A stretch of 64,000 nucleotides of DNA from Candidatus Latescibacterota bacterium. GTDB taxonomy: Bacteria; Latescibacterota; UBA2968; UBA8231. This document shows, one piece after another, positions 13,201 to 29,563 of this stretch. The translations under genes and the position numbers were made by a program. The DNA lies in NCBI GenBank assembly GCA_965261395.1, contig OZ253462.1, forward strand, positions 4,608,001-4,672,000. Direction: 5' to 3'. The notes under the pieces are model-generated. The model was not told the DNA's origin. It ran no database searches and saw nothing but the letters and a program-made list of their open reading frames with translations. The first letter of the stretch is position 1. Every line of letters begins with the position of its first letter.

Positions 13201-14276
13201 CTGCTCAGGTCCCTCCGCAAAGGATGGAAATCGAGCATTGACGCACGTTCCGCCATTTCGTCGCTCGAGATGGTCTGATTCGTTTCGTGAAATGCCATCA
13301 GGCTATGGAGGCGCATCTCCTCTGGTATTAAGGGGTCCGGCCATATAGAAGCAAACCAAAATTCGATTAGATACAGTCGAAGATCCTCATTCTTTTCCAC
13401 CATGTGGGCTATAGACCTACGCCGTTTTTGCGATTCCGCAAACGCATTTTGTGGGCTGAAAAAGTCGTGGTGATGATACAGGTGATAGCTCTGCGCCTTG
13501 GCGGCAAAGCGCATTTTATACCCATTCTGCATGAGGCGATAGGCCAAATCCCATCCTTCAGAATGGGGCAGCTCTTCGTCAAATCCACCGACCTCCTCAA
13601 GAGCGACACGCGGGGCCGAAGCATTATGTGGATAAAAACTGATCCAACCTATCGGCGAGTCGGGCACTTGGTCAGAGAGTACTTGTACTTGGTCTTGCAT
13701 TAATTTTAATTCTGGGAAGGGATACCCGCCCTCTCGGGCTAACGGGGCGATCGCATCAAAATCAGACTGTATCATAGCTTCGGTCACCCGAAATTCGTCT
13801 GGGTACGTACGCATAATATGAGCAACCGATGCTGGAACGTCCTCCCAAGGAAGGCCACTGCGCGGGTCCTGGACGTACTCCAAACGAGGCAAGCAATACT
13901 GGAATCCGCTCGTTACGCCGTTGTAGCGCTGAAATAGTTGCCAATGTTGAGCCAACCAATCGGGACCCGGTAGCGCGTCTCCGTCCAAGAAGGCGATCAA
14001 ATCTCCCCGCGCTTCCGCTATACCGATATTCCGCGCTCGGCAGCGTCCTACATTGGTATTCAAGGGAATGACTTTTACGGGAATTTGCTCATACGTACGC
14101 AGAAAATTCCCTGTTCCGTCCGTGCTGCCATCGTCCACCACGATAACCTCAAACGGGCCTTCAGAGAATGTTTGAACGGCCAAGCCGCTTAAAACGAGCC
14201 GCAACCGATCGCGCTGATTGTGTGCGGCGATGACGACAGAAATATCCATTGAGCTAGCTCCCTTATATACATTCAA
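13197..14276 (-). CDS. Glycosyltransferase family 2
   Basis: ISVVIAAHN, VVDDGSTD, ARNIG, FLDGD, GGFDE..EGWDL. Confidence 0.9.
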   Translation of the reverse strand: MNVYKGASSMDISVVIAAHNQRDRLRLVLSGLAVQTFSEGPFEVIVVDDGSTDGTGNFLRTYEQIPVKVIPLNTNVGRCRARNIGIAEARGDLIAFLDGDALPGPDWLAQHWQLFQRYNGVTSGFQYCLPRLEYVQDPRSGLPWEDVPASVAHIMRTYPDEFRVTEAMIQSDFDAIAPLAREGGYPFPELKLMQDQVQVLSDQVPDSPIGWISFYPHNASAPRVALEEVGGFDEELPHSEGWDLAYRLMQNGYKMRFAAKAQSYHLYHHHDFFSPQNAFAESQKRRRSIAHMVEKNEDLRLYLIEFWFASIWPDPLIPEEMRLHSLMAFHETNQTISSDEMAERASMLDFHPLRRDLSR

Positions 14277-16749
14277 AGACCAAGCGGCATTCCTCTCTCA
14301 GAGAATCCGGCCGATGTATACGATGTATACGAGGAATGCCATTACCCGTCTCTTCGTACACAACGGCTTGTAGCACCTCCTTGGCAGCAGAGTTTGAGCA
14401 TACGATGTGGAAGCAGTCCAAATGGCCAAAGAAAAAGTCAAAATAGGGATCGCTATTCTCCAAGACCTTATGACGTAATGCCTCATTTTGCACATTGGCC
14501 TCCGTTAGTGCTGGAGTACCAATACTGATACCGTGAAATTCCACGGGGATCCATCCGAGATCCGAGATGAAGATCTCAGCCCACGTGTGCCCAAATACCA
14601 CTTCATCATACGTTCGGTTCTCGTACCTGCTCGGCCCTAGAGGATTGACCGCTATGGCTCCGGCTTGCTCGCGAGCTGGTATTTTTAGCAGGCGACAAAG
14701 GGCAGTGAAGGCACGAGCCAACGTAATACAATGTCCGCCGTCGTCCGCTAGTGCTTTTAGGGTGCTACACCGATAGCATTGGCAGCTATCTTTGGTTTTC
14801 TTGAAATGCTTGTTTTTGGCCAAATGGTAGTATAACGAACGGGCTTTTTCTAAATCGCTCGATTCTCCGTCTATATTCACATCCTCCCAACAACTGCAGA
14901 CGAGTGGATGTTCTGCCAAGGATTCATCAACAGTAGTATAGAGCTCAAACTCTTCGGGTGTGAGCACCTCTGTTGCTCGACCCATCGCTCTCGCATAAAC
15001 CGTCAATTCGCACACGTAAGAAAACGTATATGCCTCGCCGGAGCTAAAATCACAAACAGCAGGATAGCCATAGAAAAAACCCGAATGCGGCAAAAAGTGG
15101 CTCTGGATTTCCGTAGGATAGCAAGATAGCAGTTTTATATCCTTCTGAAAGTCGGTGGTTATTGGGTAGGGCAGAAATATCCGCACATTATGTGTTGTAT
15201 CCTCGGTAGCAGATAGAGTGAAGGTATAAGTCAGCCGCAAGCGCTGACTCTCCATAGCGGGATGAAGCGCACCATTTTTTTTGTTAATGAAGAACGAACG
15301 CATCTCCTCACGCGCCTCGTAATCACACGCAAAAAAGCGAGCGTCGTTGTCGTAGAGCCAGTTCCACGAATCAAGGCGATCGTACCATATCCCGTCTTGT
15401 TTCACTTCATGCGGCATCTGGCTATTTTGCCCGTTTTCGAGCATCTCTTCAATTTGCTCGTCATTGAGCACCGTGCTCAACGACAACTGCCGGGCAAAGT
15501 CGCGTTGGCTCATCTGGTAATACGGATCGAGCCGGCCTTCTTCAGTGCGACTCATCCAGTACCCATCAATTACATCTGCGACGCGATTCGCGTCCTGCCA
15601 TTCTCGTATATCGGCAGCAAAAGCACGGCATCGTCTAGCGAATATCGCATAGTGGTTTAACAGCCCCTCGATACTTTGGACGAGAGCCGTCGGTCGGGTG
15701 AAGTCTCGGTAGCTCAATTTGATACCTAGCCCTAGTGCTTGCAGGCGGTCGATAAAATACTCTTGAGTAAAATTCGTGGGAAGCCCAATGACTGGTATTC
15801 CCTTGAACAGAGCTTGGTAGAAGAAACCGTGATCCCCGCCGCCAGCAAAGACAGCCGCTTGGGAGGCGGCCTGCCGCAAAAAACTCGGATCGACGATCTC
15901 GCAGTTTTCTATTGGGTCGATACGCACTCCAACAGGTGGAACCACCCACTGCCGAATCCCTTGCATCCCCAGCTTTTGCACGGCCTCTTGAATAAAGGGC
16001 CAATCGGCCCCCAGCGTTCTGAGATCCCAGTACACCCCCTCCCGCTCCACATCGCCTTGCTCCTCTGCATCAAGCCCCTCAAGCAGCGGTCCTACAAAGG
16101 AGTAGTTGGCAGGCGTCTCCTGTCCCAGTGGATGAACCGCTGGAATATCGCAGAGCAGATACATTTCCCCGAATGTCGTCCCATAAGTCCATTCTCGATG
16201 TGAAGCACGTTCGATTATGTCCTCCCAAGTACGCACAAACTCAGGCGAGAGAATAGGGCAAGAGTATTCGGGTATGTTATATGCCGACGTTATCCAAACC
16301 ACATCAAGCCCTTCCAGTGCCGCAGCCAAGCGCAGCGTGGGACGGGAATCTACGATAGCGAGGTCAGGCTTCAGGCGGGCAATCAACGCTCGCTCGGCTT
16401 CCACGCTCTGATGGATGAACGAATCGTAGTCCGCCTCATTCGTTCCAAAATCCAGTACTGCTCCCAAGTCTTGTATCGGCGTGGCGAGGTCGTGCAGCGG
16501 GAAATCCTCTTGCCGGATTTGGTCGGCAAACGAGCCAGTGCCAGCAAAATCGACGCTGTATCCTCGGCGACGGAGCGTCGTACCCACCACCAAAGAACGA
16601 TGCGCGGAAACGCTATCAAAGCCGTGAAAAAAGATCAGTATTGAAACTCTGTCCCGACCTAGACGACGCGAGCGTTCTTTTTCCTCAAGACGTCTGATGA
16701 CCTTGAAGAGCCTAGCTACGGTCCGCTGCCGTATTGCGTTGAACATCAT
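14263..16749 (-). CDS. GT-B (GT1/GT28-like) glycosyltransferase fused to transglutaminase-like domain
   Basis: N-terminal LRRRGYSVDFAG ... GGGDHGFFYQALFKGIPVIGLP..TQE; C-terminal GHCITLARAF...HTWAEIF...GWIPVE. Confidence 0.75.
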   Translation of the reverse strand: MMFNAIRQRTVARLFKVIRRLEEKERSRRLGRDRVSILIFFHGFDSVSAHRSLVVGTTLRRRGYSVDFAGTGSFADQIRQEDFPLHDLATPIQDLGAVLDFGTNEADYDSFIHQSVEAERALIARLKPDLAIVDSRPTLRLAAALEGLDVVWITSAYNIPEYSCPILSPEFVRTWEDIIERASHREWTYGTTFGEMYLLCDIPAVHPLGQETPANYSFVGPLLEGLDAEEQGDVEREGVYWDLRTLGADWPFIQEAVQKLGMQGIRQWVVPPVGVRIDPIENCEIVDPSFLRQAASQAAVFAGGGDHGFFYQALFKGIPVIGLPTNFTQEYFIDRLQALGLGIKLSYRDFTRPTALVQSIEGLLNHYAIFARRCRAFAADIREWQDANRVADVIDGYWMSRTEEGRLDPYYQMSQRDFARQLSLSTVLNDEQIEEMLENGQNSQMPHEVKQDGIWYDRLDSWNWLYDNDARFFACDYEAREEMRSFFINKKNGALHPAMESQRLRLTYTFTLSATEDTTHNVRIFLPYPITTDFQKDIKLLSCYPTEIQSHFLPHSGFFYGYPAVCDFSSGEAYTFSYVCELTVYARAMGRATEVLTPEEFELYTTVDESLAEHPLVCSCWEDVNIDGESSDLEKARSLYYHLAKNKHFKKTKDSCQCYRCSTLKALADDGGHCITLARAFTALCRLLKIPAREQAGAIAVNPLGPSRYENRTYDEVVFGHTWAEIFISDLGWIPVEFHGISIGTPALTEANVQNEALRHKVLENSDPYFDFFFGHLDCFHIVCSNSAAKEVLQAVVYEETGNGIPRIHRIHRPDSLREECRLVFECI

Positions 16750-16757
16750 TTTGTCCT

Positions 16758-17963
16758 TTACATTCGGCCGCTCGTCCTCAGCAGCTCTTCTACGAACTCA
16801 ACCTTGTCGTCTAGCTGAAGTTCGCGGTATAATTCCAGCGCTTGCCGCCACTGAAGTAAGGCATCAAAAGGAGCCTGATTCGACGCATAGATCCTCCCCA
16901 AGCTGACTCTAACGTCGGCCACGGCTTCCAAGTCCGATACTTTCTCAAACAGTTGCACCGCCTGCCGATATGCCTCCTCAGCCGCATTAAAGTTTTCAAC
17001 GTCCATATAGGCATCACCCAAAAGAGCCGCTTGTACCGCCCGACCTTTGTTGTCCCCAATCGCGTCAAATAGCTCCCTAGCCTGCTGGAACAACGCCGCG
17101 GCTTCTCGCGTGTCACCTTTCTCCCGTAGCACCTGCCCAAGACCGCCCATGGTGCGAGCCTCAAACTGTCTATTGCCTAATTTTTGTTGAATGGCCAGCG
17201 TCCGACGGTACATGGCTTCCGCCTCATCAAACCGACCCGTCTGGCTATATACGCCTCCCAGAACGCTGTAATGATGAGCCAACCCCTCGTCTCGCTGGAG
17301 CCGCTCCTCAATCGCAATGCCTTTTTTGAGGATGTCTTCGGCCTCGGCCAAACGCTTCTGCCCGAGATAGACTAGACCCAAGCCCTGATAGTGGCCAGAA
17401 ATACCCGGCAGATCGCCGAGTTCTTGGCAAACGTTCAGGCCCTGCTGGAAGTAGGCTTCGGCTTCTTCTGGTTTGTTCTGCTGGAGCACCAACTGCCCCA
17501 AGTTGCCGCATTCTTCAGCCCAATAGGCCCTATTTCCCGACGCCTCGTGGAGTTGCTGAGCGCGGGTGTGCAGTTCTTGCGCTTCTCCGATTTTTCCTTG
17601 GAGATGGGCGACAAAGCCTCTATTGCTATAGTTGACGGCCAGACGCTCCTCATCTCGGCGTTCACTATTGATCTCAAAGGCTGTATTGAGATAGTCAACC
17701 GCCTTATCCATCCGCCCCTTGACTTGGTACATAAGTCCCAAGCCGCTACACGCATCTGCTTCCAACTCATGTTCCTGTAACTGCCGTGCTTGCGCAAGGG
17801 CTCTTTGATACAATGCTTCAGCCTTGTCGAGTTCACCTTGTTCCTTGTGATAACGGCCCAAAAGGAGACAAGCCTTCGCTTGGGTGTGTAGATCGCGATC
17901 TTGTGCGACACGCGCACGCTGTATCGCTACGTCGCGTTCGGAAATTAACGGAATGATTTCCAT
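16758..17963 (-). CDS. Cytoplasmic TPR-repeat protein
   Basis: ~9 TPR/MalT-like 40-aa repeats, no signal peptide. Confidence 0.85.
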   Translation of the reverse strand: MEIIPLISERDVAIQRARVAQDRDLHTQAKACLLLGRYHKEQGELDKAEALYQRALAQARQLQEHELEADACSGLGLMYQVKGRMDKAVDYLNTAFEINSERRDEERLAVNYSNRGFVAHLQGKIGEAQELHTRAQQLHEASGNRAYWAEECGNLGQLVLQQNKPEEAEAYFQQGLNVCQELGDLPGISGHYQGLGLVYLGQKRLAEAEDILKKGIAIEERLQRDEGLAHHYSVLGGVYSQTGRFDEAEAMYRRTLAIQQKLGNRQFEARTMGGLGQVLREKGDTREAAALFQQARELFDAIGDNKGRAVQAALLGDAYMDVENFNAAEEAYRQAVQLFEKVSDLEAVADVRVSLGRIYASNQAPFDALLQWRQALELYRELQLDDKVEFVEELLRTSGRM

Positions 17964-17984: not shown

Positions 17985-18515
17985 TTATAACTTTTGCACT
18001 GCTTCCCATACCGGAGGCATCCCTCGTGCAAAAGAGGAAATGGTCCCCTCCTCGCTCACCACGTAAAACTGCGGTACGCCCCCGATCTTATAAGCTTGTG
18101 CAACCGCACCCGCCGAATCGACCAAAACGGGTATCGTTAGGTCATGTTTTTCGACGATTTGCTGCACTTCGTCCTTAGTACCTCGGCTGACCAGTAGCAA
18201 ACGACTCTCTTTGGGAAGGTCGTACTCTACCAAGTAACTTTCCAAGTCATTGCAATACGGGCAGGTAGGGGTTACAAAAATCAGCCCTATCCGCTGCCCC
18301 TTAAAGCTGCTGAGACTGACGTTACCTCCTTGCACAGAGGGCAATTCAAAATCAGGGGCGTCCGTTCCTTCAGACAGAGGCTCAGAACGCGTCGTATCCC
18401 CCTCGCTCCAGACGACCCCCGCTGGTTCCTCAGACTTCTCCTTGAAAATCAGCACGAGCAACAAGACCACACTAACAAGCCCGGCGATCTTCCAATGCTT
18501 TTGATCGGCCATCAT
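17985..18515 (-). CDS. Membrane-anchored TlpA/AhpC-TSA family redoxin (CPYC)
   Basis: N-terminal TM, APDFEL, TPTCPYC, GVP cis-Pro loop. Confidence 0.85.
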   Translation of the reverse strand: MMADQKHWKIAGLVSVVLLLVLIFKEKSEEPAGVVWSEGDTTRSEPLSEGTDAPDFELPSVQGGNVSLSSFKGQRIGLIFVTPTCPYCNDLESYLVEYDLPKESRLLLVSRGTKDEVQQIVEKHDLTIPVLVDSAGAVAQAYKIGGVPQFYVVSEEGTISSFARGMPPVWEAVQKL

Positions 18516-19066
18516 TCGGTCCTCTCTTTTTCAATTACTTTTTGCGCGGATTGCACAATGTTCTCAATCGGGAAGCCTCCGCCCCTAACGGCCTCGACGA
18601 TCTTTTGTTCCCTATCCACCAAGAGCACGGTCGGGAAATTCGTGATGTTGAGATGCTCCATCGTCAGTAACAGCGTATCTACGACAATGGGAAAAGCCAA
18701 GCCATGCTCGGTGACTTTTTCCATCAATCCTTCCCGGGTGTTGGAAACCATCAGGATGGGAATATCTGTAGCCGCTTTCCCTATAATGGGGTACATGGTA
18801 TCACAGGCATCACAGCCCGGCAACGTAAAGACCAGTAGGTGGGATTCGCCCTTGTACAGATGGGTAGAGATCAGGCCGCCATCTAACTGTTCGAGTTCGT
18901 ATTCCGGGACGAGCTCCCCAAGCAGATGATCCAAACCTGTATCCATTAGGACGATTGTAGGATTGTTGATTTTTGTGGCTAACAATATACTGGTCCCCAA
19001 GAGGATGCCCAGCACCGTCGAAAGGAACAGCATCGCCACTGGCGGTTTTGGACGCACATCTTCCAT
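18512..19066 (-). CDS. Membrane-anchored thioredoxin-like redoxin (CDAC), MauD/TlpA-like
   Basis: N-terminal TM, PGCDAC, NFPT cis-Pro loop. Confidence 0.8.
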   Translation of the reverse strand: MEDVRPKPPVAMLFLSTVLGILLGTSILLATKINNPTIVLMDTGLDHLLGELVPEYELEQLDGGLISTHLYKGESHLLVFTLPGCDACDTMYPIIGKAATDIPILMVSNTREGLMEKVTEHGLAFPIVVDTLLLTMEHLNITNFPTVLLVDREQKIVEAVRGGGFPIENIVQSAQKVIEKERTE

Positions 19067-19084: not shown

Positions 19085-20242
19085 CTAAAACGCATCGAAC
19101 AACGGCTGAATCCACCTATTGGCTGGCCGGACGATACTGCCTGCCCATATCAGAGTTAGGCTGACGCCAACCATCAAGGCCGGCGCAAAGGGGAGCGATA
19201 GTTCAATCTCTAACTGATCGTCCCATTCACGGAATAATCCCTTTTTTTCTAAGTCTTTTAATCGGCGCACTTTCCCGATGGTCAACGGCTTGCCCGTTCG
19301 GCCTATTAGCTCCCCCGCATCTCTACCCTGCCCGCCGAACGGAACTACTTCGACTCGGCCTTCCTCGGAGGCTTCATAAATCGACTGGTGTAGCACCATG
19401 CCCGGCTGTAAGGCATCGATAGAGACCGGCTGCACAAACTTCTGGTATTCGAGAGAATGGATATACACATAGACGTTCCGTATGCCCCACAGCACGGCCC
19501 AAAGCACTAGATAGATCAGGTAATCCCCGGTGCTGATGGCACTGAAGACACCTATTACAAGCCCGGGAACGACCAAGATGATTCTATTGGGTGCCTTGGT
19601 CAGATCTTCATGGATCAAATAGAGCACAGCCCCCACCACGATAGCCTCAGCAAGGGTCAACGTCCCGCCGACCAGCGTCGTCCCACCTAACACCAGCCCG
19701 CTCAGTCCTGCTGCCTCAACCCCAGAGCGCAACCATCCCCAACTCATGCCCTTTCTATGCTCACTTGCAGAGGTCTCGATGGGTTTTGCGGGTTTATGAA
19801 TGACCATAAGGACTATAAGAAAAACGGTATTGGTCAAAATGGTGTTGACCAACAAGGCCCAAAGAGGAGTATCCAGCGCAAAGAAGGCTAAGGAGAACGT
19901 CGGCCACTTCGGACCAAACAACGTACTCGGTATAGCCGCGACCATGGCCCAATACAGCTTAGCATCCCCCGCCCCCCAAAAGCCATACATAAACAACAGG
20001 TAGCCTACGGCAAAGCCCAGCAGAAAGGATAGGCCGATCTGTACGAGTGTAACCTCGCCCAATACCCACAACCCAATCTGCCCTATCAGCCCAAGACCGA
20101 GCAAAATCCAAGTAGCCGAGTTGGGAATCTCTCTATGGCTGAGGTCCGTATAGGTGGTGTAGGAGGCAACAACCATGATCGAGCACAACAGACCCCATTC
20201 TAACAAGAAGACGGGATCCATCTCATTCAGCAACATATCCAT
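19085..20242 (-). CDS. A24 family prepilin/preflagellin-type aspartic peptidase
   Basis: Polytopic membrane protein; YTDLSHREIPN and GAGDAKL catalytic Asp motifs; C-terminal LPFAPAL. Confidence 0.85.
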   Translation of the reverse strand: MDMLLNEMDPVFLLEWGLLCSIMVVASYTTYTDLSHREIPNSATWILLGLGLIGQIGLWVLGEVTLVQIGLSFLLGFAVGYLLFMYGFWGAGDAKLYWAMVAAIPSTLFGPKWPTFSLAFFALDTPLWALLVNTILTNTVFLIVLMVIHKPAKPIETSASEHRKGMSWGWLRSGVEAAGLSGLVLGGTTLVGGTLTLAEAIVVGAVLYLIHEDLTKAPNRIILVVPGLVIGVFSAISTGDYLIYLVLWAVLWGIRNVYVYIHSLEYQKFVQPVSIDALQPGMVLHQSIYEASEEGRVEVVPFGGQGRDAGELIGRTGKPLTIGKVRRLKDLEKKGLFREWDDQLEIELSLPFAPALMVGVSLTLIWAGSIVRPANRWIQPLFDAF

Positions 20243-20255
20243 AGCCCAATACTCC

Positions 20256-20846
20256 TCAAAAAGCGGTTCCCTTGGACTCCGCTAGCCAACTTCCCGCTTG
20301 GCTCCATTGAGTCACTAAGGCATTCACGGACAGGGTTGCCCCTGTTATTCCATCGATATCCCGGCCTACAACTAAAGGCTCAGAGAGTGCTCGCCCGATC
20401 AGTTGGGCAAAGAAGGCGGTCGGATCGAAGCGGCCGTCGGCAAGCTCCCAAGATGCCAAGGGCAAAACGCCCGCAACGCGGTCTTCTCCTGGTGCTAAGA
20501 GTATCCCGACCAGTAAATCGCGACAGGTAGGACAGGCAATATCGTGGCGGACGACGACTAGCTTGTAGGCCAACGCTTCGTCCTCCGTAACAACGCGATA
20601 GGCTGATAACACACCAGAACGCGGCGCAGGCACGGCCTGATACACTTCTTTTAGGTGGAGAGAACTCGCTGTGGAATCAAACGCGGCGAGACCGCGCAGC
20701 ACAACTTCTTTAGGCGGAATGGACGGCAGGGGCGATTCGGGGCTGAGGCCCTTTTCATACAGGCCAATAAGCATAATGATCGCAGGTATTAGTAGCAGGA
20801 TTAAACCAGAGTAAATCCAGTATAATGGATGCTTAGGCTGTCCCAT
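20256..20846 (-). CDS. Membrane-anchored FMN-binding (flavinylation motif) protein with CxxC
   Basis: N-terminal TM, IACPTC, DGITGATLS. Confidence 0.75.
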   Translation of the reverse strand: MGQPKHPLYWIYSGLILLLIPAIIMLIGLYEKGLSPESPLPSIPPKEVVLRGLAAFDSTASSLHLKEVYQAVPAPRSGVLSAYRVVTEDEALAYKLVVVRHDIACPTCRDLLVGILLAPGEDRVAGVLPLASWELADGRFDPTAFFAQLIGRALSEPLVVGRDIDGITGATLSVNALVTQWSQAGSWLAESKGTAF

Positions 20847-20892: not shown

Positions 20893-21744
20893 TTAGGGCA
20901 ACTTCGTCGTCTTCTTGGCTTCTATTTGTCCGTCCACCTCAACCTTATAGATATACACCCCGGCGGCCACCGCCTTGCCCGCCTCGTCGCGGCCATTCCA
21001 CACAAACCGATGACGGCCCGCCCCCAGCGGCCCGTCCCACAACTGCCGCACCCGATGCCCCAACACGTCGTAGAGCGCCAAGTGAACCCGCTCCTCGTCG
21101 GTCGCCAAGTCGAGGGGAATGATCATCTGGGGATTAAACGGATTGGGATAGCTTGCGCCCAGCCGATGCTGTGCCGGTCGGCCCGCGATCTCTGAGGTCA
21201 GCACCGCGGTCATCTGATCCTGCTCGGACTCCGAACAAGGAGTGGAGGAGCACTTACAAGATCCTTGCCAATAAATGTCGCCGTCCGCGCCATAGTAAGT
21301 GGTGCAGTACCGGTATGGCTCGGTTGAGTTAAACTCCGCGCAATCGTCGAAGTAGCTGCACTCAATCTTCGTATTGATCCGCTCGAGGCACATATCGGCA
21401 TCCGACACGGTGGGCGCGACCTCCTGCTCGGACTCCGAACAAGGGGTAGAGGCGTACCAGCAATTTGCTATGTAGAGGTTGCAGTACGCGTCCAAGCCAT
21501 AGGCGCAGTAGAGGTATTTATCTTGCGGATCCGCCTGCTGTGCGCCACAATCGAAACTGGGGTTGGAGCTACAGCCGATCCAAGTGGACCCGGTCCCACA
21601 CGACACCCTATCGTCTTCGGCGGCAACTTCTCTCGCGCCGAGCAGGACCACAAGCCCCGCAAGGGCACTTACGACCCACCCCAGCCTCTGCCGCATCGGG
21701 GCCAAGTCACTGGACGAGCCAGTGCATTCACGCAACCTGTTCAT
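20893..21744 (-). CDS. Cys-rich repeat protein with conserved leader and C-terminal FlgD-Ig/T9SS-like domain
   Basis: RBS AAGGAGG before ATG 21744; leader MNRLRECTGSSSDLAPMRQRLGW...AREVAA; 14 Cys after leader; SYPNPFNP...AGVYIY tail. Confidence 0.8.
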   Translation of the reverse strand: MNRLRECTGSSSDLAPMRQRLGWVVSALAGLVVLLGAREVAAEDDRVSCGTGSTWIGCSSNPSFDCGAQQADPQDKYLYCAYGLDAYCNLYIANCWYASTPCSESEQEVAPTVSDADMCLERINTKIECSYFDDCAEFNSTEPYRYCTTYYGADGDIYWQGSCKCSSTPCSESEQDQMTAVLTSEIAGRPAQHRLGASYPNPFNPQMIIPLDLATDEERVHLALYDVLGHRVRQLWDGPLGAGRHRFVWNGRDEAGKAVAAGVYIYKVEVDGQIEAKKTTKLP

Positions 21745-21805
21745 CTCTTTGCCTCCTTCGTGGCAGTACGCCCGCGGCTTGGTGCCGCTACGGTCCTGGA
21801 AGACC

Positions 21806-22798
21806 TCAAGGCAGCTTCGTCGTCTTTTTCGCTTCCACCTGCCCGTCAATTTCGACCTTATAGATATACACCCCGGCGGCCACGTCTTTGCCTACCTCGT
21901 CGCGGCCATCCCAAGTAAAACGATGACTGCCCGCCTGAAGCGGCCCGTCCCACAACTGCCGCACCCGATGACCCAACACGTCGTATACGGCCAACGACAC
22001 CCCCGCTGCGTCCTTGGCCAAATCAAGAGGGAGCACGACCGCCGGATTGAACGGATTGGGGTAGCTGTCGCCGAGCCCATGCTGCGCCAGTCGGCCTACC
22101 GCCGCTGGCGTCAGCACCGCGGTCATCTGCGCCGACTCGGCCTCCGAACAGGGGGTGGAGGAGCAGTCGCAATTTCTCAAATAAATGTCGCCGCGCGCGT
22201 CATAGTACGTGGTGCAGTGCCGATACGGCTCGGTCGAGTTAAACTCCGCGCAATCGTCGAAGTAGCTGCACTCTGTTTCTTGGTTGAAGCAACCATCGGT
22301 CGGCCCGGCGATCTCGGTCAGCTGCTCTACCTCCGAACAGGGCGTGGAGGAGCACTCACAAAATTCTCGAAAATAAATGTCGCCGCGGGCGTCATAATAC
22401 GTGGTGCAGTGCCGATACGGCTCGGTCGAGTTAGACTCCGCGCACCCGCTGTGGTGGCTGCACTCAATTTTTCGGGTCAGCACGATGGGCGCGGTCGGCT
22501 GCTCGGACTCCAAACAAGGCGTGGAGGAGTACCAGCAATCTACTATGTAGAAGGTGCAGTCCGCGTCCAAACCATAGGTGCAGTAGCGATATACCCCCTT
22601 CGGCTCCGCCAGCGCACAATCCGCGCTAGGGCTGCACGCGGTCCAAGTGTACGGGCACTTAGTGTCGGCTTCGGCTTCCGCGGTCCCGAGCAGAACCACA
22701 AGCCCGGCAAGGGCACGGACGATCCACCCGAGTCCCAGCCCCTGCCGCATCGGAGCCAAGCCACTGGACGAGCCGATAAATTCACACAATCTGTTCAT
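21806..22798 (-). CDS. Cys-rich repeat protein with conserved leader and C-terminal FlgD-Ig/T9SS-like domain
   Basis: Leader MNRLCEFIGSSSGLAPMRQGLGLGW...AEAEA; 20 Cys after leader in three units ending SSTPC; YPNPFNP tail. Confidence 0.85.
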   Translation of the reverse strand: MNRLCEFIGSSSGLAPMRQGLGLGWIVRALAGLVVLLGTAEAEADTKCPYTWTACSPSADCALAEPKGVYRYCTYGLDADCTFYIVDCWYSSTPCLESEQPTAPIVLTRKIECSHHSGCAESNSTEPYRHCTTYYDARGDIYFREFCECSSTPCSEVEQLTEIAGPTDGCFNQETECSYFDDCAEFNSTEPYRHCTTYYDARGDIYLRNCDCSSTPCSEAESAQMTAVLTPAAVGRLAQHGLGDSYPNPFNPAVVLPLDLAKDAAGVSLAVYDVLGHRVRQLWDGPLQAGSHRFTWDGRDEVGKDVAAGVYIYKVEIDGQVEAKKTTKLP

Positions 22799-22899
22799 CT
22801 CTTGCCTCCTTCGTTGCCCAGTATTCCTGCGGCCCGGTGGCTATGGTACTGAGCAAGGGCCGGTACGAGTGCGTAAGGCCGCATAGACTCATCCTCCCC

Positions 22900-25083
22900 T
22901 CAAGGCAGCTTCGTCGTCTTCTTGGCTTCTATTTGTCCGTCCACCTCAACCTGATAGATATACACCCCAGCGGCCACCGCCTTACCCGCCTCGTCACGGC
23001 CATCCCACACAAACCGATGGCTCCCCGCCCCCAGCGGCCCCTGCCACACCTGCCGCACCCGACGCCCTAACACATCGTACACCGTCAGCGACACTCCCGC
23101 CGCGTCCGTCGCCAGATCAAGAGGGATCACCACAGCCGGATTGAACGGATTGGGGTAGCTATCGCCGAGCCGATGCTGCACCGGCCGCGCTACCACTGGC
23201 GTCATCACGGCGGTCGGCTGCTCGCCCAGAGAGCTCTTGAGCACATGTACGCCGCCCAATATCGGATCTAACACCACCAAGTCGACATCGCCGTCGCCAT
23301 CCATATCCCCAGACAGCACGTATCGCCCACTGCCCTCCAGCCGATGCCGCTCCCCTTCTTGAGTCGGGTTGACACGCCCGCCCCATTCGACAAACACCCC
23401 AAAACCCGAAGCGCGATCCCCACCTATAAACACCCAGTCGTCCACCCCATCGGCATTCAGGTCGCGCACCAATACCGGCGAGCGCCGCAACAGCCGATCA
23501 TCATACAGCACCTCGGCTTCTATGCGGTCCCCGGCTCCCTTGCTCTGCAAGACGATCCCCTTGCTCCCTTCGATCAGATCGAATGTGAACTCGGTGAGGA
23601 AATCCACCTGCCCATCGCCATCAAAATCGCCCACCCCTAACGGATCCATCCATTCATCGAATTCAAATACCTCGCCGATCTGAAGCTCCTCGCCCAAGGC
23701 CCCCACAATCCACCTGTTCTCCCGCCCAGCGAGCGATGTCCAGAACACGTCTAGGGTCCCATCGCTGGTAAAGTCGCCGATCTGAACGGGCGAATAGTTT
23801 TTGGAAGCCGCCACCTCTTCGGAGGTCCACACGCCCTGTTCGACCTCCCACACCGCTAACGTGCTTGAAAACTCCGCCGTACCCGCGATCACTTCCTCTG
23901 AAGAGCCTTCAACCGTAGTCCCCTTTACAAATAATTCGACCCGGCCGTCGCCATCCCAATCTACTACACTATGGATCTGTCTATCGACCTGCACGAGCAC
24001 CTCGATTTGGAGTTCCGGCCCGATAGACCAAACTTCTGTCTTGGGCTCACGGTTGCTTCTTGATATCGCGATTTCGTTTTTACCATCGCCCGTCAAATCA
24101 GCACCAAGCGCCTTTAAGACAACCACTGAGGAGACGGTTATCCCTCCAGTTATACTACCCTCCCCTGTGGCCGCTACTGCTACTTCCTCTATAACAGGCC
24201 CACGTTCCAAGGCACCTCGCCCGTCATTGAGGGCCATCAGCCAGCCCGCTTTAGACTCATCCCCTCCCGGCGATAGTGTTTTCGTTTGCGTTTCCCAGAG
24301 GCCGAACAGGTCTAAGTCGCCATCGCCATCCAAGTCCGTCAACACACCGCCCCCCCTCTCCCCTAGATACCCTCCTCCATACCCTCCATGAAGTGCTTCC
24401 CCTACGCCCAGCGCAATCGGATAGAAAACCGGCGGCGCAAAAAGGCCGGCCCCAGCAAAGCCAAAGTAGTACTCTACGGACGGCGGCGGCAGTTCCCCCT
24501 CTATCAACTCTTCCACGCCGGTCAACTCGATCAAGTCGATCTCAAACGCCTCAACCCCCTCGGTAGCCGAATCAGAATCCAGTATAAAACTTAGCTGAAT
24601 ATTTTTTAACAGGCCCTCCCATCCGTCTTGATCCGCCAGCGAGAACACCACTTCCTGCCACTCGGTGGTATAGACTATTTGTTGTACGAGGTCATCTTCA
24701 AGTTTTTCATAACTAAAAAAATCAAAACCTGAAGAGCTTTCCCACTCTATCCAAAAAGTACCTTCCGTAGGGCGGTCATGGATGGTGCGGAACCGGACGC
24801 GGACTTGGTCGAACAAGCCCGAATCGTACCCGATGGTCGAAGAAATCACTTCGACACCCGGGCTGGAGGCGTACAAACTATTGGTGACGGCGGGATCAAC
24901 CCTGATCCGCCACACACCGTCTTCGACCATCGATGGAAACTGGTGGAATTCACGCGCCCCCCCCCATGTAAGCGCTTCTTTGGCGGTCCACCCTTGCGTC
25001 GTCCCATCGTCAAAATCCCACTTGATCGCCTCGGCGAGACTACTCCACAGCACAATCCATATGACAATGGCGAATTTCAGCAT
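22900..25083 (-). CDS. Secreted FG-GAP repeat protein with C-terminal FlgD-Ig domain
   Basis: Signal peptide; DLDGDGDLD, DFDGDGQVD, DMDGDGDVDL repeats; YPNPFNP tail. Confidence 0.85.
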   Translation of the reverse strand: MLKFAIVIWIVLWSSLAEAIKWDFDDGTTQGWTAKEALTWGGAREFHQFPSMVEDGVWRIRVDPAVTNSLYASSPGVEVISSTIGYDSGLFDQVRVRFRTIHDRPTEGTFWIEWESSSGFDFFSYEKLEDDLVQQIVYTTEWQEVVFSLADQDGWEGLLKNIQLSFILDSDSATEGVEAFEIDLIELTGVEELIEGELPPPSVEYYFGFAGAGLFAPPVFYPIALGVGEALHGGYGGGYLGERGGGVLTDLDGDGDLDLFGLWETQTKTLSPGGDESKAGWLMALNDGRGALERGPVIEEVAVAATGEGSITGGITVSSVVVLKALGADLTGDGKNEIAISRSNREPKTEVWSIGPELQIEVLVQVDRQIHSVVDWDGDGRVELFVKGTTVEGSSEEVIAGTAEFSSTLAVWEVEQGVWTSEEVAASKNYSPVQIGDFTSDGTLDVFWTSLAGRENRWIVGALGEELQIGEVFEFDEWMDPLGVGDFDGDGQVDFLTEFTFDLIEGSKGIVLQSKGAGDRIEAEVLYDDRLLRRSPVLVRDLNADGVDDWVFIGGDRASGFGVFVEWGGRVNPTQEGERHRLEGSGRYVLSGDMDGDGDVDLVVLDPILGGVHVLKSSLGEQPTAVMTPVVARPVQHRLGDSYPNPFNPAVVIPLDLATDAAGVSLTVYDVLGRRVRQVWQGPLGAGSHRFVWDGRDEAGKAVAAGVYIYQVEVDGQIEAKKTTKLP

Positions 25084-25195
25084 GATATCACAGAATCCTT
25101 TCCAACAGGTAAAACTCTGACAGACAGCGTACTATCCGTTAAAAAAAGAAAAGGGGGATGTGAAAGCTGCTTGGCGATTCTTGGGAGACCCGACG

Positions 25196-25348
25196 GGGGT
25201 TTTAAAACCAATACGGTTTAGTTAAGCACTATGTAAACGATGAAACGGGTGCCAAATAGATCGGCATTACACGAGTTATCCATCAGAATCTAGTGCTGCT
25301 ATCCGTGGCTATCAGCCGCTAACTAAACCGTATTAATTTTAAGACAGC
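25196..25348. mobile_element. Putative MITE / IS remnant
   Basis: Perfect 15-bp inverted repeat AATACGGTTTAGTTA (25210-25224 / 25320-25334), extending imperfectly to ~30 bp; no ORF inside. Confidence 0.5.
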
Positions 25349-25351
25349 CTC

Positions 25352-25633
25352 TTAGCAAGCGCAGCAGTACCAAGCAGAGCACTGGATAGAACAATTCGAA
25401 TCCAGCCGACAGTCCCTACACTTGCACTTCTGTCCCCCGCCCGTGGCCTCGTCGCAACCTGAGCTAGACACCGGACCCTCTCTCCATGAGGTATCGTCGC
25501 AGGCAGCAGCTTCTCGCGCCCCGAGCAGGACGGCGACCCCCGTGAGGGCACTGATGACCCAACCCAACCCCAACCCCTGCCGAGCCGGAGCCAAACCGCT
25601 CGAGGACGTGAAAAATTCCCGAATATTGTCCAT
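25352..25633 (-). CDS. Cys-rich precursor-like peptide B (10 Cys in core)
   Basis: RBS AAGGAG; 44-aa conserved leader then CDDTSWREG...WYCCAC; paralog of 25779..26060. Confidence 0.85.
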   Translation of the reverse strand: MDNIREFFTSSSGLAPARQGLGLGWVISALTGVAVLLGAREAAACDDTSWREGPVSSSGCDEATGGGQKCKCRDCRLDSNCSIQCSAWYCCAC

Positions 25634-25680
25634 CTTATTTTACTCCTTTATTCTTTGCCGACTATCCGTGAAGTAAGAAG

Positions 25681-25721
25681 GGAAAAGGGGGCCGGCTTAA
25701 TCGCTACGATTAAACCGGCCC
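25681..25721 (-). terminator. Rho-independent terminator-like hairpin between the two peptide genes
   Basis: Minus RNA GGGCCGGUUUAAUCG-UAG-CGAUUAAGCCGGCCC then CCUUUU; fully paired (one G-U) on this strand. Confidence 0.65.
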
Positions 25722-25778
25722 TTTACACCTTAGCAAGAGAAACGGCTCTACAGCAGCTAAGGTTGTCTCAGACATTCT

Positions 25779-26060
25779 TCAAACGCAGCAGTAGTTCCCT
25801 CCACACCTTGTCACGCAGTTCGAGTCCAGCCAACAGTCCTGACACATCTTCGGCAATCTCCCGTTCGTAGCCTCGTCGCAACCTGCGTTGTACCCCTTAT
25901 CCCTTGTCCAGCGTCTTTCGTCGCAATCGGCAGCAGCTTCTCGCGCCCCGAGCAGGATCGCGACCCCCGCGAGAGCACTGATGACCCACCCGAGCCCCAA
26001 CCCCTGCCGAGCCGGAGCCAAACCGCTCGACGAGCCGATAAATTCCCGTAACATAGTCAT
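25779..26060 (-). CDS. Cys-rich precursor-like peptide A (8 Cys in core)
   Basis: RBS GAGGGG; leader MTMLREFIGSSSGLAPARQGLGLGW...AREAAA then DCDERRW...NYCCV. Confidence 0.85.
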   Translation of the reverse strand: MTMLREFIGSSSGLAPARQGLGLGWVISALAGVAILLGAREAAADCDERRWTRDKGYNAGCDEATNGRLPKMCQDCWLDSNCVTRCGGNYCCV

Positions 26061-26198: not shown

Positions 26199-26214
26199 TG
26201 CAAGTTTCTTGCCA
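26199..26214 (-). promoter_or_regulatory. sigma54 -24/-12 promoter
   Basis: TGGCAAGAAACTTGCA vs consensus TGGCACGNNNNTTGCW, exact spacing, between a sigma54 activator and peptide A. Confidence 0.85.
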
Positions 26215-26335: not shown

Positions 26336-26393
26336 CCACGATTTTTCCGTGGATTTACACGGCTTTTTCGTGGATTTACACGACTTTCGTTGG
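26336..26393. promoter_or_regulatory. Putative upstream activator sequences (three phased palindromes)
   Basis: CACG-N7-CGTG at 26337 and 26358, degenerate third at 26379; 21-bp period. Confidence 0.65.
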
Positions 26394-26428: not shown

Positions 26429-29400
26429 CTACTTCTTCGGGCGTCGTACCCCGTATTTCTGCATGCGGTAACGCAGCTTCTCCGGGTGCATACCCAACAA
26501 CGCGGCGGCACCATGCACACCATAGATCCTCCAGTGGGTCGCTTGCAGGGCCGCTAGGATTTGCTGCTTTTCGTCCACCTCTTCGACCGGCGGCGCTTCG
26601 TCCGCGTCCCCGGTTCGTCGTTCAGTCGGCGGGTGCTCCCCATCCCCGGCGGGCGGCGCAACCGACGGCAACGACACATCCTCCACCCGCATGACGCCAT
26701 CTTCGCACAGCAAGACCGCGCGGTGGATCAAGTGCTCTAACTCCCGCACATTCCCCGGCCAAGCATACCCCTGCAAGTGCGCGACCACCCCCTCGTCTAG
26801 CGTCGGCACCGACCGCTTTAGGTCTTGGGCGAACCGCGCCACAAAATACGCCGTCAAAGTCGGTATATCCTCTCGCCGCTGCCGCAGCGGCGGAAGCGCT
26901 AGCGTGAAGACGCTCAGACGGTAGAACAGGTCTTCGCGGAACGTGCCCTCCTGTACATCCTGCCGCAGATCGCGGTTGGTCGCCGCCACCACCCGCACCT
27001 CCACGGTTACAGGATGCTCGCCACCGACGCGGGTCAGGGTCTTCTCCTCTAAAATGTGCAGCAGCACCCGCTGGGCTTCTAACGGCAAATCGCCGACTTC
27101 GTCCAGAAAGAGGGTGCCGCCATCGGCTAGTTCAAAGCGCCCGAGCTGGCGGGTGTCTGCCCCGGTAAAGGCCCCTTTCTCGTGGCCAAACAGCTCGCTT
27201 TCGACCAGCCCGGCGGGCAGCGCCCCGCAATTAACTTGGATAAAGGGCCGCTTGCGGCGGGTGCTTGTTTCGTGGACGGTCCGAGCGAGCAAACCCTTGC
27301 CGGTGCCGGTCTCGCCCAGCACCAGCACATTCATATCGGTCTCGGCTACCCGCGAGACCTGTCTCATTACCTCGTGCATGACTCGACTGTGGCTCTGCGC
27401 CATATGGTCAATAGGCCGGAGTGTCCTTTCGAGGGCGTCGATGCGCTCGGTTTTGGCGTCGGGGAGGACCTGAATCTTCAAGCCGACTACCCCGGACCTC
27501 AGGCCATCCCGGTCTATGGTCTGCACCTCAAAGCGGTAGTCACCCACCGGCAAGGCGTTATACGCCACTACATTGGCGGTGGTGAACGCGCTCCACTGTT
27601 CTGCTGGGCCGTAGCCTAACAGGCGGTGGCTATAGCGCATCAGCTTCGCGCCGGTGCGGAAGCTGATACCTTGGAAGCGAACGCGAATTTCCGGGGTGTG
27701 CTCTATACAGGATACGGCTTCGGGCGCAGCAAAGAGGCTCCCGGCCATCACCTCGCGGATCACCAAGCACGGAGACGTGTCGCCGGGCTGGTAGGCGACC
27801 AGTCCGGCCCGCGTCCCAAACCACAGTTGGCCATGGCGGTCGCATTGGATAGCCTCGACTACGTTTCCGAGAGCAGATGGTCCTAAGCGGATGCTTTGAA
27901 AGGTCTGGCCGTCGTAGCGGATCACTCCCCCGCCGCTGGTCCCGATCCAAACATTGCCCTGCCGGTCGGCCGCCAGCGCCAAGATGCCATTGGCCACCAG
28001 CCCGGAATTATTGGCGGTAAAGTGGCCCACCTGCCCCGACGAGCGGTCGAGGATGAAAAGCCCCTTAGCCGTACCTATCCACAAGGTATTTTGATACTCC
28101 CACAAGACATTGACATAGGCGATGGTCTCCGCCTCGGCCATATCCACCGGGCGAAATTGACCGTCTTTGTACCAATAGAGCGCCGGTATTCTTGCGTAGA
28201 AACCAATCCAGAATACCCCGTTTTGGTCTTGCAGCAAGGAACGACACTCGTCGCCTGCCCACTCGTCGAAGGGGATGAAGCGATTGGCTTCTATCCAGCC
28301 GAAGTGGCCCTGGAGCGTGCCAATCCATATACGCCCTTGCTGATCTGTGCACAGCCCGGTGATTTTTTCGGCGTGGGTCTCTTCAGTCACCGTGATCACT
28401 TGCGGCGTTTGGCCCCCCCACTTGTACACCCGGCCGGTGTCCCCACCACTCCAAACCTGCCCCTCTTCATCCACCACCATCGCCGAAACGGTTTCATCCG
28501 TATTGAGCGGACAGATTTGGCCCTCTTCCATATAGGCCATACCGCCCATCGTGCCGATCCACATCCGTCCCCCATGGTCTTCTCCCAAATGGCAAATCTC
28601 GCGGTCGGGCAGGCCGTCGGCTTCCGTGTAGCACCGGATGCTGGCCGGATCGCAAAAAATCAGCCCGCCGCCCCAAAGCCCGATCCAGATATTGCCCTCG
28701 CGGTCCTCGTAGGTCAGGCGCGTACCCGAAAAGTCTGCATCCGGCAGGGAGACGGAAAAATGATGCCACTCTTGATCATTGTGTACAACCACCCCTCGGC
28801 GTGCCAGCCAGAGTCGGTCCCCATCGTCAGCCCGCACGTGCCGCACCCCGTTCTGCGTGCCCCTATCGGTCTTATGGCCCACATGGATGAATGCAAACTG
28901 CTCGTCTCGCGGATCGTAGCGGCCAATAAAGGTTTCGGGGGCCGTGTACAGGAAGGCGATCCACAGATGGCCGGAAGAGGTTTGGGCGAATTTCCAAGGA
29001 TGTTGAATCGCCTCCTCGTCAATACCCATGCACCGCCCATCTAAGCTGATGATGCCTCGGTCCCACGTCGCCAGCCAGGTAGTACCCGCCGCGTCGGTGG
29101 CCATATCGTACACCCGCCCCAAAGGTTGGCCGCCAACTTCGGTTATGAGCTTTGTGCAGCGATCTTGGGCAAACCAAGCCACGCCCGCGCCAGTCAACGC
29201 CACAATCGAACCATCCGGCTGGACTTGCAAACCCATGATCTCGTTGGAAGGCAGGCCGTGCTCAGTGGTGTACACCTGAAAGCCGCGCCCGTCATAGGCG
29301 GCAATCCCCCCGCCGAACGTGCCGAACAGCAGCCGCCCGTCGGCTTCCTCGGCAATGGCCATGACCGTCAGATTGGGCAGGCCGTCTTTGAGGCCAAAGT

Positions 29401-29563
29401 TATCAAAATGGGCGCTGTCGAACCGGCTGACGCCGCCGTCGGCCGTGGCGATCCAGAGAAAGCCCTGGCGGTCTTGGTAGATGTCTTCCACGTGCATCCC
29501 AGCCAGCCCATCAAAGACCGTGTACTGGCTGCTCAACACGTGCTCAAAGGATATGTCGCTCAT
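26429..29563 (-). CDS. sigma54 enhancer-binding protein with N-terminal beta-propeller (Reg_prop/Y_Y_Y) sensor
   Basis: Repeated D..G.LWIGT.GG blades, Y_Y_Y-like region, GETGTGK, GAFTGA, LFLDE, WPGNVREL, C-terminal HTH. Confidence 0.9.
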   Translation of the reverse strand: MSDISFEHVLSSQYTVFDGLAGMHVEDIYQDRQGFLWIATADGGVSRFDSAHFDNFGLKDGLPNLTVMAIAEEADGRLLFGTFGGGIAAYDGRGFQVYTTEHGLPSNEIMGLQVQPDGSIVALTGAGVAWFAQDRCTKLITEVGGQPLGRVYDMATDAAGTTWLATWDRGIISLDGRCMGIDEEAIQHPWKFAQTSSGHLWIAFLYTAPETFIGRYDPRDEQFAFIHVGHKTDRGTQNGVRHVRADDGDRLWLARRGVVVHNDQEWHHFSVSLPDADFSGTRLTYEDREGNIWIGLWGGGLIFCDPASIRCYTEADGLPDREICHLGEDHGGRMWIGTMGGMAYMEEGQICPLNTDETVSAMVVDEEGQVWSGGDTGRVYKWGGQTPQVITVTEETHAEKITGLCTDQQGRIWIGTLQGHFGWIEANRFIPFDEWAGDECRSLLQDQNGVFWIGFYARIPALYWYKDGQFRPVDMAEAETIAYVNVLWEYQNTLWIGTAKGLFILDRSSGQVGHFTANNSGLVANGILALAADRQGNVWIGTSGGGVIRYDGQTFQSIRLGPSALGNVVEAIQCDRHGQLWFGTRAGLVAYQPGDTSPCLVIREVMAGSLFAAPEAVSCIEHTPEIRVRFQGISFRTGAKLMRYSHRLLGYGPAEQWSAFTTANVVAYNALPVGDYRFEVQTIDRDGLRSGVVGLKIQVLPDAKTERIDALERTLRPIDHMAQSHSRVMHEVMRQVSRVAETDMNVLVLGETGTGKGLLARTVHETSTRRKRPFIQVNCGALPAGLVESELFGHEKGAFTGADTRQLGRFELADGGTLFLDEVGDLPLEAQRVLLHILEEKTLTRVGGEHPVTVEVRVVAATNRDLRQDVQEGTFREDLFYRLSVFTLALPPLRQRREDIPTLTAYFVARFAQDLKRSVPTLDEGVVAHLQGYAWPGNVRELEHLIHRAVLLCEDGVMRVEDVSLPSVAPPAGDGEHPPTERRTGDADEAPPVEEVDEKQQILAALQATHWRIYGVHGAAALLGMHPEKLRYRMQKYGVRRPKK

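Follow-up and report, generated by a model that had tools for sequence, protein, structure and literature searches.

Within a window of 64,000 nucleotides from the genome of a Candidatus Latescibacterota bacterium (assembly GCA_965261395.1, contig OZ253462.1, positions 4,608,001 to 4,672,000 of the forward strand), four genes were found whose products start with the same N-terminal leader and continue into cysteine-rich bodies. They lie next to genes for a membrane peptidase and for thiol-redox proteins, and we examined which kind of signal the leader may be and which pathway it may serve. The genome is one contig and was rated 95% complete. The four genes are:

25779-26060, minus strand: pepA, 93 residues, consisting of a 44-residue leader and a 49-residue core with 8 cysteines
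25352-25633, minus strand: pepB, 93 residues, consisting of a 44-residue leader and a 49-residue core with 10 cysteines
21806-22798, minus strand: long1, 330 residues, consisting of the leader, tandem cysteine-rich modules (20 cysteines) and a type IX sorting domain
20893-21744, minus strand: long2, 283 residues, consisting of a partly decayed leader, cysteine-rich modules (14 cysteines) and a type IX sorting domain

The start of long2 was set to the ATG aligning with the other three genes; the list of open reading frames instead reaches a TTG at 21849. An initial annotation of the locus, made from the letters alone, had proposed four genes sharing a leader while their cores diverge. Both an alignment and a genome search confirmed this at the positions given above: the N-terminal 42-44 residues are common to all four proteins and the downstream parts differ. 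When the 45-residue leader was searched against the entire genome (6.55 Mb), these four copies alone were returned (E 5e-23 to 1e-11), the next match having an E value of 0.9. The long2 leader exhibits a two-residue deletion and an aspartate replacing the glycine at position 13 (G13), and there is one cysteine within the leader of long1 and likewise of long2. The even cysteine numbers downstream of the leader (8, 10, 20 and 14 in pepA, pepB, long1 and long2, respectively) and the motif C..LD(S/A)xC in all four proteins, both described initially, were borne out. Recent duplication had been named as the explanation that would undo the idea of a conserved tag. It did not hold, since the synonymous sites of the leader have diverged: comparisons of the short with the long genes and of long1 with long2 gave a synonymous divergence (dS) of 0.60-1.00 and a ratio of nonsynonymous (dN) to synonymous divergence of 0.18-0.33. 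The similarity is thus kept by selection, and homologues carry the same leader. For pepA and pepB, dS was 0.24 in the leader and 0.71 in the core (core dN 0.45), a difference that may leave room for some gene conversion.

To describe the leader beyond the window, relatives were collected by a word-based search with pepA, which returned 151 small proteins. The 44-residue leader could be cut by pattern from 118 of the 120 relatives listed (P0067 and P0112 were dropped). It is composed of four parts, the motif F-x-x-S-S-S-G, a basic spacer (GL-x-LGW), a membrane helix and a terminal A-x-A. In the 118 close relatives the residues F7, S10, S12, G13, P16, G20, L21 and A44 are invariant, and none of these leaders has any cysteine. 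A profile (A3) of 34 sequences, which represent five leader variants and in all of which F7, S12, G13, L21 and W25 are invariant, was scored against 1.84 billion representatives. It matched 140 clusters at E ≤0.001 and 40 at E ≤1e-10, so that the family comprises at least 140 clusters at 50% identity, with up to 22 leader matches per genome. When the 140 representatives were aligned to the profile, the best-kept columns were the S/T-G pair (S/T12 in 131/138, G13 in 133/138) and the A-x-A (A42 in 105/135, A44 in 131/135); F7 (121/137), W25 (114/138) and G20 (103/137) were kept as well. Every leader variant retains F-x-x-x-x-[ST]-G, L21, W25, the helix and the A-x-A. A variant-3 leader (locus L027, genome G013, contig C177, 6571-6909) has a tandem E-S-G motif, its two copies being about 12 residues apart. 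All whole-leader matches of 150 residues or more (P0125, P0200, P0211, P0235 and P0241) were cysteine-module proteins. Homologues carry the labels Gemmatimonadetes or Gemmatimonadota in their NCBI records, and a tblastn search of plasmids with a distant family member gave two weak, unannotated Rhodococcus matches.

The bodies behind the leader are much less conserved. Among the 115 relatives with cores of at least 35 residues, 1500 sampled pairs gave a mean pairwise identity of 0.785 for the leaders versus 0.314 for the cores, the latter value dropping to 0.196 when cysteines were left out. The initial proposal that the leader is a recognition tag is supported by this difference and by the persistence of the family in 37 of the 168 genomes of the phylum. 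The 115 cores showed 12 cysteine patterns, and their cysteine number is even in 109 cases. A unit reading ...CWCSSTPCP ends the short relatives P0049, P0051, P0058, P0076, P0084 and P0121 and is repeated in long1 and long2. Thus, the same disulfide module is made both free and fused to a sorting domain, as had been suggested.

Directly downstream of long2 on the same strand, four genes encode membrane-bound proteins that recur with the leader genes in other genomes:

20256..20846, minus strand: membrane-anchored RnfG/NqrC-like protein binding flavin mononucleotide (FMN), 196 residues (weak FMN_bind match, RnfG-like model)
19085..20242, minus strand: FlaK-like A24 (GxGD) aspartyl peptidase, 385 residues (PF01478, 36.8 bits; cut-off 26.5)
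18512..19066, minus strand: TlpA1, first TlpA/ResA-like membrane-anchored thiol-disulfide oxidoreductase, with CDAC (Redoxin 28.3 bits; cut-off 26.6)
17985..18515, minus strand: TlpA2, second TlpA/ResA-like membrane-anchored thiol-disulfide oxidoreductase, with CPYC (AhpC-TSA 70 bits, Redoxin 50 bits)

The A24 peptidase is the sole PF01478 match in this genome. Its best NCBIfam match is FlaK with 30.7 bits, far under the equivalog cut-off of 330, and we therefore regard it as a relative of FlaK, not an orthologue. In an alignment of 26 sequences, which takes in two archaeal-type FlaK-like proteins, both catalytic aspartates (D33 and D93 of the G-x-G-D motif) are invariant, and D33, G92-D93-K95 and P-F-A-P at 351-354 are invariant or nearly so. 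A search of PDB sequences with the A24 protein gave one chance-level row. In the five further genomes inspected, eight out of nine A24 matches were cassette genes, the ninth being a 187-residue open frame. Throughout the phylum, 32 of the 168 genomes contain this A24 type, all of them among the 37 with the peptide family, and neither was seen in 131 genomes. In 10 of the 14 A24-positive genomes outside the genus, a listed peptide match is no more than 5 kb, mostly less than 0.5 kb, away from a listed A24 match; two of the remaining four are fragmented assemblies in which the genes sit on separate contigs, and the other two have some peptide matches that are not listed. Moreover, A24 paralogues (41, 37, 33 and 32% identity) each adjoin a distinct leader variant, and two or three such pairs occur within single genomes (G001, G012 and G013). 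A complex prediction for the A24 protein (alignment A4) and the leader (A3, residues 1-46) yielded scores of 0.14 and 0.26, the mark being 0.32. In one protein, P0160, the C-terminal part of a variant-2 A24 peptidase is joined to the start of a variant-2 leader; this is probably a gene-call or assembly artefact, which still illustrates the closeness of both genes.

The C-terminal part of the leader resembles the end of a Sec signal by rule of thumb, position 42 being A, V, T or S in 129 of 135 representatives. The leader might be an ordinary Sec signal with a long N-region that is cut by signal peptidase I alone, the A24 and redox genes being neighbours with another job. Its conservation would then be that of a signal sequence retained by a fast-evolving gene family, as in the toxin superfamilies of cone snails. 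Such an explanation would suit the hydrophobic helix and the well-kept A-x-A (A44 in 131/135), the existence of long forms whose N-terminal motif has decayed, the plain signal used by another type IX cargo of the locus (the FG-GAP protein described below) and the low leader dS of pepA and pepB (0.24 against 0.71 in the core), which may reflect gene conversion. However, the most conserved residues F7, S12 and G13 precede the helix, in a region that may vary freely in Sec signals. In addition, the A24 type occurred in peptide-bearing genomes only (32/32), the peptide gene adjoins the A24 gene even in distant genera, leader variants are specific to A24 paralogues, and neither pilus machinery nor another candidate substrate of A24 was found. 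We therefore judge a plain Sec signal to be unlikely, though it deserves serious attention. A twin-arginine translocation (Tat) signal exporting pre-folded peptides is scarcely credible. The long N-region, the glycine-rich, mildly hydrophobic helix and a K or R at position 40 in 114 of the 118 close relatives would agree with it, and an R-R pair is present in 30 of them; yet the remaining 88 relatives and all four window genes have R-Q instead of the twin arginine, and the pair is lost in variants 4 and 5.

The N-terminal part of the leader has features of a prepilin-type signal. G13, kept in 118/118 close relatives with long2 having D, fits the glycine at position -1 of a short N-terminal leader. 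By contrast, at position +6, where Flp prepilins have Y, 82 of 137 representatives have Q, R or K. In the distant member P0210, F-L-R-D-E-S-G stands before the glycine, a string which we take to be typical of Flp leaders; a literature search for a Flp motif returned no paper. In the pepA model the helix (H27-47) starts 7 residues past G13, and a cut at G20 would place the helix directly after it. In type IV pilins a conserved N-terminal helix is combined with a hypervariable C-terminal head. The products might accordingly be true pilin-like subunits, from which the A24 peptidase removes the leader while the helix stays N-terminal, with the cysteine-rich heads exposed on a fibre or retained at the inner membrane. 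The position of the A24 gene beside its substrates and the pattern of constant helix and variable head favour this, but T2SSE ATPase (PF00437), T2SSF platform protein (PF00482) and Flp pilin were not detected in this genome by searches that matched in control genomes, and an assembly ATPase above the cut-off was present in none of the five further genomes. Furthermore, there is no glutamate at position +5, the A-x-A is conserved after the helix, and type IX cargo has to be soluble in the periplasm. Pilin-like subunits are thus quite improbable. When Flp pilins were sought for a profile comparison, one weak sub-threshold match was obtained among 61 genomes of the class. The leader shares the glycine and a dedicated peptidase with Flp prepilins and lacks several defining Flp features, the G/XXXXEY site among them; for this reason we describe it as a composite tag, class III-like at its N-terminus and Sec-like at its C-terminus, and do not file it as a Flp pilin.

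The FMN protein was studied together with 11 homologues from other cassettes. Its FMN_bind score of 16.4 bits remained below the gathering threshold of 22, and weak matches (best E 5e-4) were obtained for all 12 proteins. C105 and C108, which form a CxxC motif, as well as D165, G166, G169, A170 and T171 are invariant in 12/12, and the same holds true for the motif D-G-x-[ST]-G-A-T, which fits the [S/T]GA[S/T]-type flavinylation motif. The AlphaFold model of the protein (predicted local distance difference test, pLDDT, 79) matched RnfG chains from solved structures of Rnf complexes, 7zc6_G with E 1.3e-4 and probability 1.00, NqrC giving a weaker match. Flavinylation motifs of the [S/T]GA[S/T] type and hybrid clusters of thioredoxin-like and flavinylated proteins are described in the accessible text of PMC8238504. 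TlpA1 adjoins the A24 peptidase in each cassette examined, and TlpA2 is matched by the ResA and MauD models under their cut-offs. Elsewhere in the genome there are an ApbE gene (276 bits) and one DsbD-type membrane protein; DsbB (PF02600) and VKOR (PF07884) were not found in this single-contig genome with its estimated completeness of 95%. Given the FMN/CxxC protein, the presence of ApbE and the failure to find DsbB or VKOR, we infer that the 4-10 disulfides of the peptides are formed and shuffled by the FMN/CxxC protein together with both TlpA-like proteins, the direction of electron flow being putative.

The initial annotation had likened the leader to those of ribosomally synthesized and post-translationally modified peptides (RiPPs). 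Prochlorosin-type precursors indeed have a conserved leader and a hypervariable core. On this basis a RiPP-type leader would be read by cytoplasmic modifying enzymes before export, and the strong terminator after the first peptide gene (listed below) could be taken in the same sense. The analogy found no support, since the leader contains a membrane helix and an A-x-A and tracks an A24 membrane peptidase and a thiol-redox kit; its partners are extracytoplasmic redoxins. Neither a modifying enzyme of the radical-SAM, lanthipeptide, YcaO or a similar family nor a leader-recognition family was detected among the 20 neighbouring proteins scanned with Pfam, 10 of which were also scanned with NCBIfam, and the even cysteine numbers (109/115) fit plain disulfides. 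A RiPP-type leader is therefore very improbable.

Between the short and the long leader genes lies a further gene for a secreted protein:

22900..25083, minus strand: FG-GAP propeller protein (FG-GAP_3 45.5 bits, FlgD_ig 47.7 bits, TIGR04183 30.8 bits; cut-off 23)

Its N-terminus is short, ordinary and signal-like and ends in AEA, in agreement with the ordinary signal peptide ascribed to it initially, and it has only the C-terminal sorting domain in common with the long proteins. For long1 and long2, TIGR04183 gave 29.7 and 27.2 bits, respectively (same cut-off). A complete PorU is encoded in the genome (618 bits; cut-off 420), and no fewer than 50 other sorting domains occur there. It is therefore plausible that long1, long2 and the FG-GAP protein each end in a type IX signal. 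Pairs of a peptide gene and an FG-GAP gene recur in relatives. Long arrays, in which peptide genes alternate with genes for FG-GAP or type IX-domain proteins, were seen in L031, L032 (G018), L025 and L026; short pieces of the DUF4159, GT2 and FMN-protein genes are scattered between their units, and in-frame stops interrupt some of the peptide copies. The arrays look like the result of rapid duplication and decay. The pairing within them suggests the FG-GAP proteins as partners of the peptides, be it as carrier, receptor or immunity protein. Elsewhere in the window, a protein encoded at 9886-11541 combines an F5/8 type C domain with a FlgD_ig-type domain at its C-terminus and is probably another type IX cargo.

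The remaining features of the cassette concern its regulation and an accessory block:

26429..29563, minus strand: sigma-54-dependent activator, 1044 residues (Pfam: Sigma54_activat 232.6 bits, Reg_prop 132.4 bits, HTH_8)
26347..26383, no strand: pair of 16-bp palindromes lying 21 bp apart in the stretch from the activator gene to the promoter
26199..26214, minus strand: sigma-54-type -24/-12 promoter-like site TGGCAAGAAACTTGCA, located some 140 nt ahead of the start of pepA
25689..25721, minus strand: terminator-like hairpin of 15 pairs (9 G-C) immediately behind pepA, with a T-rich tail after it
11845..17963, minus strand: accessory block of TPR, transglutaminase-like (828 residues), GT2 glycosyltransferase and DUF4159 genes (Pfam)

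At its N-terminus the activator has a Reg_prop/Y_Y_Y propeller sensor; neither a signal nor a membrane segment is obvious. Its orthologues stand at the cassette head in L026, L029, L030, L034 and L035. The palindromes are a possible activator-binding site; their exact 12-mer is confined to loci of this genome, and L034 and L030 gave no above-chance match when up to 3 mismatches were allowed. The promoter-like site has one mismatch to the consensus, and the number of such sites in the whole window is not above chance. A looser -24/-12 pattern was fitted by 16 sites in 252 kb comprising the window and 12 related loci, of which six stand within 450 nt ahead of a leader gene and another five immediately precede variant-2 A24 genes. 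Thus, the position of the putative site is conserved at cassette heads.

A BLAST comparison of all open reading frames with the 12 related loci disclosed a common cassette, which consists of the activator, the peptide genes and the genes for the FG-GAP protein, the FMN protein, the A24 peptidase, TlpA1 and TlpA2, and continues with the TPR, transglutaminase-like, GT2 and DUF4159 genes. The accessory block adjoins variant-1 and variant-2 cassettes in L029, L030, L031, L034, L035 and L036. Four of the five loci examined from other genera share the order FMN protein, TlpA1, TlpA2, A24 and peptide, whereas L060, the fifth, has its peptide gene between TlpA2 and A24. Neither the accessory block nor FG-GAP genes were seen in these five distant loci (L056-L060), the block being limited to the genus.

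The structures of the cores were examined to see what the peptides might be. In the AlphaFold model of pepA the core alone is confident (pLDDT ~90, residues 46-93), and its elements follow the order strand-helix-strand-strand. Structure searches, recommended in the initial annotation with a view to defensin, knottin and MauA folds, gave no significant match and no MauA-like fold: Foldseek with the pepA model found 0 PDB matches at E ≤0.001, and a wide structure search by VIA-align produced nothing significant (best Z 3.0), laterosporulin3 appearing with an insignificant Z of 2.8 and a root-mean-square deviation of 3.7 over 44 residues. The profile of the pepA subfamily gave two chance-level rows and no defensin among PDB sequences. 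The motif CxxxC...[GAS]xC...CxC occurs in none of 117 close pepA relatives. It was detected in 24 of 121 distant representatives, for which 4.4 were expected and at most 10 were seen in 200 shuffles. A profile (A7) of 20 motif-bearing members was compared to PDB sequences as well; plant, fungal and mussel defensins and scorpion toxins predominate among its 60 best matches, all of which are below significance (best E 0.024). From the motif excess and these matches, some of the superfamily appears to resemble cis-defensins. A putative antimicrobial or host- or competitor-directed function of the peptides is suggested by their hypervariable bodies and by the defensin-like relatives.

Taken together, we lean towards the interpretation that the tag serves a private pathway for the maturation and oxidative folding of hypervariable, exported, disulfide-rich and in part defensin-like peptides, the long forms of which leave by the type IX route. 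This interpretation starts from the observed anatomy and conservation of the tag, the gene linkage and the co-variation of leaders and peptidases; the cleavages, the redox direction and the function of the peptides are inferred. The precursor would insert into the inner membrane via Sec with its N-terminus in the cytoplasm. At the membrane, the two anchored TlpA-like redoxins would oxidise the body and shuffle its disulfides, and the RnfG-like FMN/CxxC protein would re-oxidise both of them. The co-encoded A24 peptidase would cut the tag on the cytoplasmic face, most likely after G13; the S/T-G ending of the cytoplasmic leader resembles a prepilin (A24) peptidase site. Signal peptidase I would free the cysteine-rich body after A44. 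Short forms would then stay in the periplasm or exit the cell, while long forms would reach the surface by type IX secretion via their C-terminal domain. The adjacent sigma-54 activator would switch on the whole set.

Several points weigh against this pathway. Five genomes (G011, G022, G024, G027 and G029) possess the peptides and show no A24, and the co-occurrence table of the phylum is a description and not a test, its genomes being relatives rather than independent samples. Long type IX forms with decayed N-terminal motifs were found both in genomes with A24 (G001, G021) and in genomes without it (G011, G022); together with D13 in long2, they indicate that the N-terminal motif is dispensable at least for type IX forms. 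The Flp glutamate at position +5 is replaced by R in 84 of 138 representatives, a basic spacer of 6-7 residues separates G13 from the hydrophobic stretch, and Pfam Flp_Fap (PF04964) matched neither any of 17 peptides at E ≤10 nor any protein of the genome. G20, located directly before the helix and kept in 103/137, is a possible alternative site for the A24 cut. There is no significant fold match for the cores of the window itself. Finally, both leader cleavages are predictions, and the need for two of them is not explained by the pathway.

A more far-reaching version, which we put forward tentatively, regards the locus as a self-contained, sigma-54-switched factory for a hypervariable arsenal of defensin-like peptides that draws on two repurposed parts: a pilus-less orphan prepilin-type peptidase would serve as maturation or signal-clearing protease, and a covalently flavinylated, RnfG-like CxxC protein would generate disulfides de novo in a bacterium in which neither DsbB nor VKOR was found. 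The A24 protein would then act by analogy to the eukaryotic signal peptide peptidase, the invariant leader fragment that it releases may feed back on the activator through its cytoplasmic propeller sensor, and the FMN protein would resemble Ero1/Erv as a flavin-dependent sulfhydryl oxidase of the periplasm. A description of the system was not found in the literature, of which subscription journals were outside reach and the supplementary tables of PMC8238504 could list such clusters. If the proposed pathway is true, prepilin-type peptidases have a role outside filaments in bacteria, and there is a flavin-based route to periplasmic disulfides in organisms devoid of DsbB and VKOR. The family would also provide a natural library of small, stably folded and highly varied cysteine-rich peptides along with the enzymes making them, and the invariant tag a simple handle for mining such peptides from metagenomes. 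The whole looks like an undescribed bacterial route to a varied set of defensin-like peptides.

Compared with known systems, the tag is closest in its N-terminal part to Flp/Tad prepilins with TadV and to archaeal class III signals with FlaK/PibD (MEROPS A24). In these systems, too, a short leader ending in an invariant glycine precedes a hydrophobic stretch, and the substrates have a dedicated A24 peptidase, devoid of a methyltransferase domain, encoded alongside. In contrast to them, the present family has no E-Y after the cut site, a basic spacer before the helix, an A-x-A behind it and cysteine-rich bodies; pilus ATPase, platform protein and a match to the Flp hidden Markov model were not found here. 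For Flp, the cut site G/XXXXEY and the dedicated TadV are given in the accessible parts of PMC4322843 and PMC10934763.

In combining a near-invariant N-terminus with very diverse cores, the family is similar to the prochlorosins and to the toxin superfamilies of cone snails, a fast-evolving gene family that retains a conserved signal sequence. The tag described here, however, is bacterial, membrane-inserting and tied to an A24 peptidase, and it comes without lanthipeptide-type chemistry. Small, disulfide-rich and hypervariable bodies are shared with cis-defensins and with defensin-like bacteriocins such as laterosporulins and actifensins (the latter treated in the accessible text of PMC6989792), the known bacterial examples of which are not described with this leader or kit in the literature searched.

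The redox proteins invite two comparisons. As in the MauA/MauD system, a cysteine-rich exported protein has a TlpA-like redoxin of its own, but the window's redoxins match the MauD model weakly (45.7 and 31.6 bits versus a cut-off of 188.6), and no mau genes and no MauA-like sequence or fold were found here. The resemblance to the ApbE-flavinylated extracytosolic modules, as far as these are described in the accessible text of PMC8238504, includes an anchored FMN domain, the [S/T]GA[S/T]-type motif, thioredoxin-like neighbours and a genomic ApbE. The cassette differs from those modules in containing no DsbD, DUF3570 or DUF4266, in the invariant CxxC of its FMN protein and in the tie of this protein to a peptide family and a peptidase.

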